Shown here: positions 17,236 to 19,524 of the stretch, one piece after another
Numbering within the stretch: the stretch's first letter is position 1
How the letters are laid out: each line of letters starts with the position of its first letter
Assembly: GCA_037440105.1 (NCBI GenBank)
Contig: JBBIUS010000002.1
Span: forward strand, 2,685-66,684
Length of the DNA: 64,000 nt
Direction: 5' to 3'
Origin: Candidatus Falkowbacteria bacterium
GTDB lineage: Bacteria > Patescibacteriota > Patescibacteriia > XYB2-FULL-38-15
Notes under the pieces: generated by a model
What the model saw: only the letters and a program-made list of their open reading frames with translations
What the model was told of the DNA's origin: nothing
Databases searched by the model: none
Position numbers and translations under genes: made by a program

Positions 17236-18051
17236 ATGGAACAAATTATTTTACCTTCAAAGATCGAAGTTCAAAAGACTGAAATTCCTAATAAGGAAGT
17301 CATTACTATTGAACCATGTTATTATGGCTATGGCACAACCTTGGGTAATGCTCTAAGGCGCGTTCTTCTTTCTTCGCTTCCTGGGGCAGCCGTCACAGCA
17401 GTAAAAATAAAAGGAGTTTCACATGAATTTTCCGTTGTTCCTCATGTTAGAGAGGATGTGATAGAAATTATTTTGAATTTAAAAAAATTAAGATTAAGGG
17501 TTTTTACTGATGAAGAAGTAAGACTTTTTTTGAAAGCAAAAGGCGAACGGGAGGTTAAGGCGGATGACATCGAAAAAAACGCAGATGTCCAAATAGTTAA
17601 TCCCGAATTACACATTGCTGACCTCACAAGTAAAGAAGCTGATTTAGAGATGGAAATATTTGTTAGCCGGGGGAGGGGATACGTGCCGACAGAAGCCAAA
17701 GAAGAAAAAAAATTGGAAATGGGAGTTATTGGAGTCGACTCAATTTTTACGCCGGTTAGAAATGTTGGTATAAAAGTAGAGCCGGTTCGCGTTGGGCGCA
17801 TTACTAATTATGATAAATTAATTTTAGATATTGAAACCGATGGCACTATCACTCCTTCTGAGGCATTAGTTCAATCTGTGCAAATTTTGATTGATCATTT
17901 TAGTTTGATAAAAGACCATTTATTAGGAAAGCCAGAAAAAAGAGAAGAAGAAGTACGAGAAATCGAGAAAGCAAAAGAAGAAATTTCAAAAGAAGAAGTC
18001 CCAGGAGAAAAACCAAAAAAGAAAAGGGGAAGACCGCCGAAGAAGAAATAA
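17236..18051 (+). CDS. rpoA: DNA-directed RNA polymerase alpha subunit, NTD only, with K/E-rich tail ending in an AT-hook
   Basis: 271 aa. The alpha-NTD is recognisable to ~residue 228 (TNYDKLILDIETDGTITPSEALVQSVQILIDHF). The remaining 43 aa are EKREEEVREIEKAKEE...KPKKKRGRPPKKK. No alpha-CTD is present. Confidence 0.9.
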   Translation: MEQIILPSKIEVQKTEIPNKEVITIEPCYYGYGTTLGNALRRVLLSSLPGAAVTAVKIKGVSHEFSVVPHVREDVIEIILNLKKLRLRVFTDEEVRLFLKAKGEREVKADDIEKNADVQIVNPELHIADLTSKEADLEMEIFVSRGRGYVPTEAKEEKKLEMGVIGVDSIFTPVRNVGIKVEPVRVGRITNYDKLILDIETDGTITPSEALVQSVQILIDHFSLIKDHLLGKPEKREEEVREIEKAKEEISKEEVPGEKPKKKRGRPPKKK

Positions 18052-18092
18052 GAAGCATGAATTAGAATTAAGAAAAACTATTAATTATAATT

Positions 18093-18443
18093 ATGCGGCA
18101 TAGAAAGAAAGGTAAAATTTTAGACAGAAAAGTTGGCCCGAGAAAAGCGCTAATTAAAAATTTAGCGACTAGTTTGATTATTTATGAAAAGATTAAAACT
18201 ACAGAGGCTAAGGCAAAAGTATTGCGCTCATTTGTTGAAAGATTAATTACAAAAGGGAAAGTAAATAATCTCCAAAGTCGAAGAGAAATTTTAAGGCGCC
18301 TTTTTTCAGAAAATGCGGTTCGAAAAATTTTAGATGAGTTAGGGCCGAGGTATAAAGATAGAGCCGGAGGGTATACAAGAATTATTAAAATTGGAAAGAG
18401 AAAGGGCGATGGAGGAGAGATAGCCCAGGTTGAGTTAGTATAA
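18093..18443 (+). CDS. rplQ: 50S ribosomal protein L17
   Basis: 116 aa. MRHRKKGKILDRKVGPRKALIKNLATSLI... is typical L17. Confidence 0.95.
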   Translation: MRHRKKGKILDRKVGPRKALIKNLATSLIIYEKIKTTEAKAKVLRSFVERLITKGKVNNLQSRREILRRLFSENAVRKILDELGPRYKDRAGGYTRIIKIGKRKGDGGEIAQVELV

Positions 18444-18963: not shown

Positions 18964-19524
18964 ATGGTAAAAAAGGGAACTAAAAAAACAAAAGTAAAAG
19001 CAAAAACAGCTGCAAAAAAAGCTGAGGTTATCGTTTTTAAAGAAAAACCAAAACCTAAAATTGGAGAAGAAAAAGTTAAGAAAGTAAAATCAATCAGCGG
19101 GGAGGAATTGGTAGAAAAAGTAGCGGCAAAAAAAAGAACATATCTTTTTGCGGTTGGGAGAAGAAAAAGCGGGATCGCTCAAGTGAAAATTTATAAAAAT
19201 GGCAAGGGTGTAATCACTGTGAACGGAAAAGATTATAGACAGTATTTCCCGTTTTTTGAATTTCAAGAAATAATTAATGCTCCTTTAAGATCAGTTGGCC
19301 AAAGCGATAAACTTGATGTTGAAGTAAAGATAAACGGCGGCGGGAAGCGAGGTCAAGCAGAAGCTATAAGATTGGGAATTAGTCGAGCTTTGATTAAATT
19401 AAACCAAAATTTTAAAAAGAATCTGCGTCGGGCTGGGTTTTTAACTAGAGATGCAAGAGTTAAAGAAAGAAAGAAATATGGTCTAAAACGCGCCAGGCGC
19501 GCCCCGCAGTGGCAAAAGCGTTAA
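18964..19524 (+). CDS. rpsI: 30S ribosomal protein S9 with Lys-rich N-terminal extension
   Basis: 186 aa. S9 core (AVGRRKSGIAQVKIYKNGKG...GGGKRGQAEAIRLGISRAL) and a C-terminal ...QWQKR. The first ~55 aa are a K-rich extension. Confidence 0.95.
   Translation: MVKKGTKKTKVKAKTAAKKAEVIVFKEKPKPKIGEEKVKKVKSISGEELVEKVAAKKRTYLFAVGRRKSGIAQVKIYKNGKGVITVNGKDYRQYFPFFEFQEIINAPLRSVGQSDKLDVEVKINGGGKRGQAEAIRLGISRALIKLNQNFKKNLRRAGFLTRDARVKERKKYGLKRARRAPQWQKR

Follow-up and report, generated by a model that had tools for sequence, protein, structure and literature searches.

We analyzed rpoA, the gene that encodes the RNA polymerase alpha subunit, in a stretch of 64,000 nucleotides from a Candidatus Falkowbacteria bacterium (assembly GCA_037440105.1, contig JBBIUS010000002.1, positions 2,685 to 66,684 of the forward strand; this whole stretch is termed the window). 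Judging from the sequence, the alpha subunit of this organism has no C-terminal domain (CTD), and its N-terminal domain (NTD) leads into an acidic tether of some 30 to 40 residues, which is predicted to be disordered and bears one C-terminal AT-hook. The loss of the CTD is a trait of the ABY1-type lineage of Patescibacteria and not an error, and purifying selection maintains the hook in the taxonomic family of this organism as well as in other, scattered families. The alpha-CTD of model bacteria reads upstream promoter (UP) elements, is the main docking site of class I activators, and is essential in Escherichia coli and Bacillus subtilis (PMC4495994). We propose, at about even confidence, that the hook is an accessory, low-specificity tether to the DNA minor groove, a putative role most like that of the acidic segment plus AT-hooks of the CarD protein.

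Absence of the alpha-CTD from the gene, the genome, and the class

The window carries rpoA in the gene order rpsM-rpsK-rpsD-rpoA-rplQ-rplM-rpsI, which is the standard operon arrangement, and a search with the rpoA profile gave a single match in the genome. The features of the locus are as follows (positions are those of the window; ORF, open reading frame; pLDDT, predicted local distance difference test).

17236..18051, + strand: rpoA, RNA polymerase alpha subunit, 271 aa plus stop codon (ORF list, sequence, NF003519)
17236..17925, + strand: alpha-NTD, residues 1-230, dimerization and beta/beta' assembly (Pfam, AlphaFold2, phmmer)
17926..18015, + strand: acidic linker, predicted disordered, residues 231-260, GKPEKREEEVREIEKAKEEISKEEVPGEKP (low pLDDT, free variation)
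18016..18048, + strand: AT-hook tail KKKRGRPPKKK, residues 261-271 (invariance in homologues, sub-threshold match to PF02178)
18025-18036, + strand: R-G-R-P core of the hook, residues 264-267 (sequence)
18052..18092, + strand: rpoA-rplQ spacer, 41 nt, too small for a CTD (sequence)
18093..18443, + strand: rplQ, ribosomal protein L17, the usual 3' neighbor of rpoA (ORF list)

An initial annotation, made from the letters alone, had described a frame of 271 aa with an intact alpha-NTD and a charged linker leading to a Lys-flanked hook with a GRP core, and this layout was confirmed by the ORF, by Pfam, and by AlphaFold2. The region on which that annotation had centered, 17920-18051, corresponds to RpoA residues 229 to 271 plus the stop codon; in the ORF translation the C-terminal end reads ...EEVPGEKPKKKRGRPPKKK, and the tail peptide is EKPKKKRGRPPKKK. 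Pfam placed RNA_pol_L (PF01193) at residues 27 to 222 and RNA_pol_A_bac (PF01000) at residues 56 to 172. The protein scored 289.2 bits with the NCBIfam rpoA equivalog NF003519 (cutoff, 277) and 266.6 bits with TIGR02027 (cutoff, 227.8), and it gave a weak match to the NCBIfam model of the archaeal subunit D. A phmmer search of the PDB paired residues 22 to 249 with residues 22 to 247 of the B. subtilis alpha subunit (6wvj; E value of 5.6e-60) and also matched the NTDs of other solved polymerases. An AlphaFold2 model, run on a 50-sequence alignment, had a pLDDT above 90 across residues 11 to 229, with the final NTD helix at 207 to 229, and block means of 40 to 58 over residues 231 to 271, where a single helix of low confidence covers a Glu/Lys-rich segment (236 to 251). 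The NTD, which serves in the assembly of the core enzyme, is intact, and RpoA is predicted to be the sole and functional alpha subunit of the organism.

The claim that the ORF holds no alpha-CTD stood up equally well: the Pfam scan of RpoA gave no match to PF03118, the CTD family, and NF003519 was aligned just over positions 1 to 248 of 320. We found neither a frameshift nor a downstream ORF with a CTD, as rplQ begins 41 nt past the rpoA stop codon; since only these 41 nt separate the two genes, a frameshift would be unable to restore one. We then searched for a separate CTD gene in the assembly, which comprises 956 kb in 85 contigs with a marker completeness of 100% and an estimated contamination of 6%. 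In all six frames of the genome, PF03118 gave nothing above its cutoff, and a second profile, built from the alpha-CTDs of other Patescibacteria so as to catch a divergent local form, gave zero matches. The lone sub-threshold match to PF03118 (E value of 0.16, 12 bits) lies in a 103-aa protein of the YtxH family (57.6 bits to YtxH) and was rejected as a hidden CTD.

RpoA is short in the relatives as well. Among 40 genomes sampled from 32 families of the same class, the rpoA open frames span 233 to 308 aa, the exception being one read-through frame of 361 aa that contains a stop. The named relatives are Candidatus Uhrbacteria, Buchananbacteria, Falkowbacteria, and Magasanikbacteria, and the class is therefore ABY1. 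Within it, 272 of 301 genomes have no PF03118 match at an E value of ≤0.001, while across the phylum the alpha-CTD is found above the Pfam cutoff in 334 of 401 genomes. A CTD-less alpha subunit also occurs in the Nealsonbacteria, Gribaldobacteria, and Colwellbacteria and in the families f69, f80, and f146; the CTD is kept in the Moranbacteria, the Azambacteria, and the sampled CTD-bearing genomes that are probably Saccharimonadia-like, and family f48 has a divergent one. On trees built from the NTD only, the presence and absence of the CTD require one to two changes, which is compatible with a single loss, the deep branches of these trees not being resolved. Because RpoA is a bacterial equivalog and CTD-bearing RpoA proteins exist elsewhere in the phylum, we interpret the CTD-less state as a secondary loss.

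In the class, 26 of the 301 genomes do have a PF03118 match above the cutoff. These matches appear to be CTD-like domains outside rpoA, as shown for one genome (G037) and inferred for the rest from the frame sizes and the sampled loci. We inspected nine PF03118 loci, and in six of the frames an alpha-CTD-like domain comes after a sigma-70 region 4, an architecture confirmed by Pfam in two of them. The six fusions (L044, L045, L047, L048, L050, and L051, from genomes G644, G660, G621, G468, G570, and G569) often have an N-terminal helix-turn-helix (HTH), lie in DNA of 35 to 54% G+C, and are sporadically distributed; possibly, they are promoter-binding proteins carried by mobile elements or phages. 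In G037, the domain forms the C terminus of a 467-aa protein with a region-4-like HTH (L035), encoded on contig C10 (2,050 bp, 57% G+C), and this GC-rich contig is probably contamination or a mobile element and not part of the core genome. We considered such fusions as a source of a CTD supplied in trans and rejected them, for they are sporadic, are often of odd G+C content, and are lacking in this genome. That the truncation of rpoA is a sequencing or assembly artifact, or that its CTD is encoded in trans, could draw on the fragmented assembly, its estimated contamination, and the 26 class genomes with a CTD-like domain in another protein, but the closeness of rplQ, the identical architecture in more than 100 independent assemblies, the empty six-frame searches with both profiles, and the sporadic nature of the fusions of odd G+C make it scarcely credible, and we regard it as refuted as far as the sequence goes.

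The laboratory-made truncated subunits alpha(1-235) of E. coli and RpoA-del of B. subtilis yield enzymes that assemble and transcribe but lose UP-dependent and activator-dependent promoters (PMC4495994). They are not viable as the sole copy, whereas here an entire class naturally carries an NTD-only alpha. The archaeal RpoD and the eukaryotic Rpb3 and AC40 proteins are homologues of the alpha-NTD that never carry an alpha-CTD and in this resemble the protein studied here; the present protein, however, is a clear bacterial rpoA equivalog whose CTD would have been lost secondarily.

The initial annotation had also expected that the loss of the CTD would remove the docking surface for class I activators. 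This fits the genome, which is nearly devoid of such regulators: profile searches found no LysR HTH, no Crp/FNR protein above the cutoff, and one OmpR-type response regulator (C11:16016-16234). CRP/FNR proteins are likewise reported to be absent from the candidate phyla radiation (CPR) (PMC12531629). As a side observation, Mfd is apparently absent from this genome, and the repertoire of transcription factors is very small.

Conservation and distribution of the hook

We collected the 120 closest homologues of RpoA from a collection of 5.8 billion proteins. All of them have NTD domains only, and 58 of the 120 carry RGRP near the C terminus. We anchored 57 hook-bearing homologues, with overall identities of 57 to 88%, on RGRP and derived the consensus EEKxKKKRGRPKKxK, which ends at the C terminus. 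The residues K-R-G-R-P (motif positions -1 to +3) and the Lys at +5 are invariant in 57/57, positions -2 and +4 are almost so, and the hook lies 3 to 11 residues from the C terminus in all 57. For the linker that precedes it, the median values are 42 aa in length and -7 in net charge; Asp and Glu make up about one third of its residues, and its columns hold three to seven different residues within one family, i.e., it varies freely. In the rpoA of the window, the hook continues as RGRPPKKK, and this protein alone among the 57 has a Pro at +4 (codon 18037-18039) in place of Lys or Arg.

The codons of the hook were compared in nine genomes of the family. The Pro codon is CCA, CCC, CCG, or CCT, the Arg codons are AGA or AGG, and the Gly codon is GGA or GGC, while the peptide is fixed; synonymous variation was found at all positions of the hook except for the Lys just 5' of the Arg. 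Because these codons change synonymously around a fixed peptide, it is the peptide that is conserved and not the DNA. Within the genome under study, the hook is the sole RGRP with basic flanks among 984 predicted ORFs.

On the NTD-only tree, hooks with the same flanks (PKKKRGRPKK) sit on several deep branches, where they are mixed with RGRK, poly-Lys, and tail-less forms. The tree requires 13 changes of tail state, at least four of which are forced by well-supported branches. We conclude that the hook is probably old within the CTD-less clade and has decayed repeatedly.

Proposed role of the hook and the DNA upstream of promoters

We propose that the two hooks of an alpha dimer would protrude on the upstream side of the polymerase and that the Arg-Gly-Arg core of each would enter the narrow minor groove of A/T runs located upstream of the -35 element. 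The hooks would thus provide a low-specificity, UP-like electrostatic tether that could raise promoter occupancy, and the acidic linker might limit nonspecific sticking of the hook or mask it until DNA competes.

The closest functional parallel is CarD of Myxococcus xanthus, in which a module that binds RNA polymerase is followed by an unfolded acidic segment and by RGRP hooks; at an AT-rich site that lies upstream of a promoter, these hooks occupy the minor groove, and they maximize promoter activity without being strictly required (PMC4374960). The order of the parts (polymerase-bound module, acidic unfolded segment, basic RGRP hook) is the same here. CarD, however, acts as a factor of its own, with the beta subunit and CarG as binding partners and with four hooks, whereas a single hook is fused to alpha here, which gives two per enzyme. 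The likeness is functional and does not imply membership in the family, the RNA polymerase-interacting domain of CarD/CdnL/TRCF (PF02559) having no match in this genome. The AT-hooks of eukaryotic HMGA and the AT-hook-like Q/RGR motifs of bacterial H-NS and Lsr2 share the R-G-R(-P) core, the Lys/Arg flanks, and the disordered context, and in HMGA an acidic tail accompanies the hooks; all of these belong to proteins of chromatin or of the nucleoid, while the hook described here is part of a polymerase subunit. With the canonical alpha of E. coli, B. subtilis, and Thermus thermophilus, the protein shares the homology of the NTD, the operon position, the point where the linker exits, and the proposed target, i.e., the minor groove of A/T-rich sequences upstream of the -35 element. 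The canonical subunit has a folded helix-hairpin-helix CTD of about 80 aa, which offers a surface to class I activators, whereas here an 11-residue AT-hook on a longer acidic linker offers none.

We then examined the upstream DNA. The genome has classical TTGACA-N17-TATAAT promoters, as predicted with a position weight matrix, and 106 of these predicted promoters were aligned at the -35 element and scored for A/T runs of at least 6 bp. Such a run was present at -59 to -36 in 72% of the promoters, compared to 52% of other intergenic windows (P = 1e-5). No position-specific, UP-like A/T peak was found genome-wide in the 106 promoters beyond a general A/T richness of upstream DNA, and we set aside a genome-wide UP element on this account.

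The genes for ribosomal RNA (rRNA) gave a more specific picture. The 16S gene lies on contig C5 (locus L058) and is preceded, about 340 nt upstream, by a near-consensus promoter, P1 (TTGACA-17-TAAAAT).

L058, about 3550-3484, - strand: rRNA P1 promoter with upstream tandem repeat (sequence)

The DNA upstream of P1 reads TGTGGAAAAATTGTGGAAAAAAAATCTAAAATTTGCTC, and its A/T tracts are centered near -65, -53, and -43, spaced by about one helical turn. A tandem pair of GTGGAAAA abuts the -35 element of P1 in seven of nine family genomes, in the form TGTGGAAAA(A)-N-TG(T/G)GGAAAAG with an 11-bp period, and the A-tracts of the pair fall at about -55 to -51 and -44 to -41, the places classically assigned to the distal and proximal parts of a UP element. 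Besides L058, this observation refers to loci L064, L065, L067, L068, L072, L078, and L086. The repeat could be a UP-like element or the site of some activator, and the pair of hooks of an alpha dimer could use the tandem pair, which we regard as a lead and not as evidence. We also considered GTGGAAAA as a genome-wide promoter word and rejected it, since its 92 copies are mostly intragenic and the tandem pair occurs only at rRNA P1. In most of these genomes, a second promoter, P2, follows about 100 nt downstream of P1 and is itself preceded by long runs of T and of A. With regard to the gene itself, the exact pattern of the 515F primer site had no match in it, and it was located with the Rfam model; it spans 1,682 nt (C5:21220-22901), compared to 1,533 positions in the model, hence about 150 nt of insertion.

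Several observations weigh against a tether that reads A/T-rich DNA, and against a general substitute for the CTD. The AT_hook family, PF02178, is the sole Pfam family that matches the tail, and it does so below its gathering threshold (11.2 bits, cutoff of 17.4, E value of 0.39), although single short AT-hooks may tend to fall under the Pfam cutoff. The excess of A/T runs at -59 to -36 (72%) is not significant when compared to the region from -95 to -72 (63%; P = 0.2). Tail-less relatives (e.g., G016) also have A/T tracts upstream of their rRNA promoters, and the conserved G's within the GTGGAAAA repeats suggest that something else reads them. The hook has turned repeatedly into RGRK, poly-Lys, or nothing on the NTD tree. 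In a species-level sample of 73 RpoA proteins from named genomes, 13 with and 60 without a CTD, the CTD-less proteins comprised 30 with no basic tail, 29 with poly-Lys, and 1 with the hook. The G+C content around rpoA in hook carriers, 36 to 52%, is no lower than in others. Finally, two other families carry KPKKRGRPKK in ribosomal protein S9 as well, on an extension of its N terminus (L019, 3143-3679, + strand; L030, 3075-3593, + strand), where the partner of the hook is presumably RNA.

Given that many CTD-less relatives lack the hook, it is an accessory and not an obligatory substitute for the CTD, and it appears to have been retained in particular families. The suggestion of the initial annotation that the hook replaces the CTD therefore holds in part: the CTD is truly gone and the hook is under selection, but 59 of 60 CTD-less RpoA proteins do without one. 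Its further idea, that the hook is suited to an AT-rich genome, was not supported, given the G+C content of the hook carriers and given that no positioned UP-like element stood out at predicted promoters; the genome itself is AT-rich only moderately, with a G+C content of 37.3%. Across relatives, we saw no trend of tail type with G+C content or with A-tracts at rRNA promoters, in a comparison of few and related genomes.

Alternative readings of the tail and their significance

Besides the accessory minor-groove tether, we weighed other functions for the tail. It is possible, if rather unlikely, that it is a generic anchor for any polyanion, holding the backbone of DNA during promoter search and sliding, or nascent or ribosomal RNA, and that the G-R-P core is merely one flavor of a Lys/Arg patch in which A/T or minor-groove specificity is of no relevance. 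Extended AT-hooks have been reported to bind RNA. Sister lineages have KRGRKKGSTNKKK, KKAKKAKK, and like tails at the same place, S9 bears the same hook in L019 and L030 and has a Lys-rich extension in this organism as well, hook carriage shows no relation to G+C, and a positioned UP-like signal was not found, all of which would agree with such an anchor. Hard to explain in this way is the invariance of R-G-R-P, including the Gly and the Pro, in 57 homologues that are 57 to 88% identical. Within the family of this organism, moreover, the motif shows no drift to poly-Lys, save for one genus with RGK. The S9 protein of this genome (rpsI, 18964-19524) is extended at its N terminus by about 55 aa, a segment that is Lys-rich and without GRP.

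A more ambitious proposal, which we hold to be doubtful, is that the two hooks are a minimal convergent counterpart of the two alpha-CTDs and read helically phased pairs of A-tracts just upstream of the -35 element. Its candidate target may be the tandem GTGGAAAA at about -55 and -44 of rRNA P1. If this were true, reduced bacteria would have kept DNA tethering, and not activator docking, from the alpha-CTD, and they would provide a natural system in which both roles of that domain are separated.

Alternatively, the tail could be a protein-docking or self-masking motif, its basic tip binding an acidic surface, be it that of the linker itself, of sigma, of a transcription factor, of NusA, or of the ribosome, in which case it would regulate the polymerase instead of touching DNA. 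Acidic tails of HMGA and HMGB modulate the basic DNA-binding parts of these proteins, the alpha-CTD of model bacteria is a hub of protein contacts too, and in the hook-bearing homologues the +8 tip comes without exception after an acidic linker, whose median net charge is -7. We nevertheless find this improbable, as no partner was found, the sequence of the linker is unconstrained, and R-G-R-P is familiar as a module for the minor groove of DNA (PMC4374960). Least likely of all these is that the tail is a neutral, functionless, low-complexity leftover of the loss of the CTD: many CTD-less relatives do stop right past the NTD or in acidic sequence, so that the tail is dispensable there, yet the conserved C-terminal position and the strict conservation of the peptide, with synonymous turnover and beside a freely evolving linker, leave this idea very little room.

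A search of the full-text literature found no description of a natural CTD-less alpha subunit or of an AT-hook on alpha in the CPR. Within the CPR, promoter data have been published for a single organism, Nanosynbacter lyticus TM7x (PMC12641261), probably a member of the Saccharimonadia, which bear a CTD, as we infer. A whole bacterial class transcribes without an alpha-CTD, a loss consistent with the very small regulator repertoire of the CPR, and one family has fused a eukaryote-style AT-hook directly onto a polymerase subunit, which suggests that bacterial promoter recognition is more plastic than model organisms indicate. An 11-residue peptide on a natural NTD-only alpha may also offer a small system for weighing the contribution of upstream-DNA tethering to initiation. 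In addition, many public records of metagenome-assembled genomes titled "uncultured Gammaproteobacteria," "Bdellovibrionales," "Candidatus Saccharibacteria," and "Kapaibacterium" carry a CTD-less RpoA of the ABY1/Parcubacteria type (L091-L132 and others), and the taxonomic labels of these records are probably wrong.

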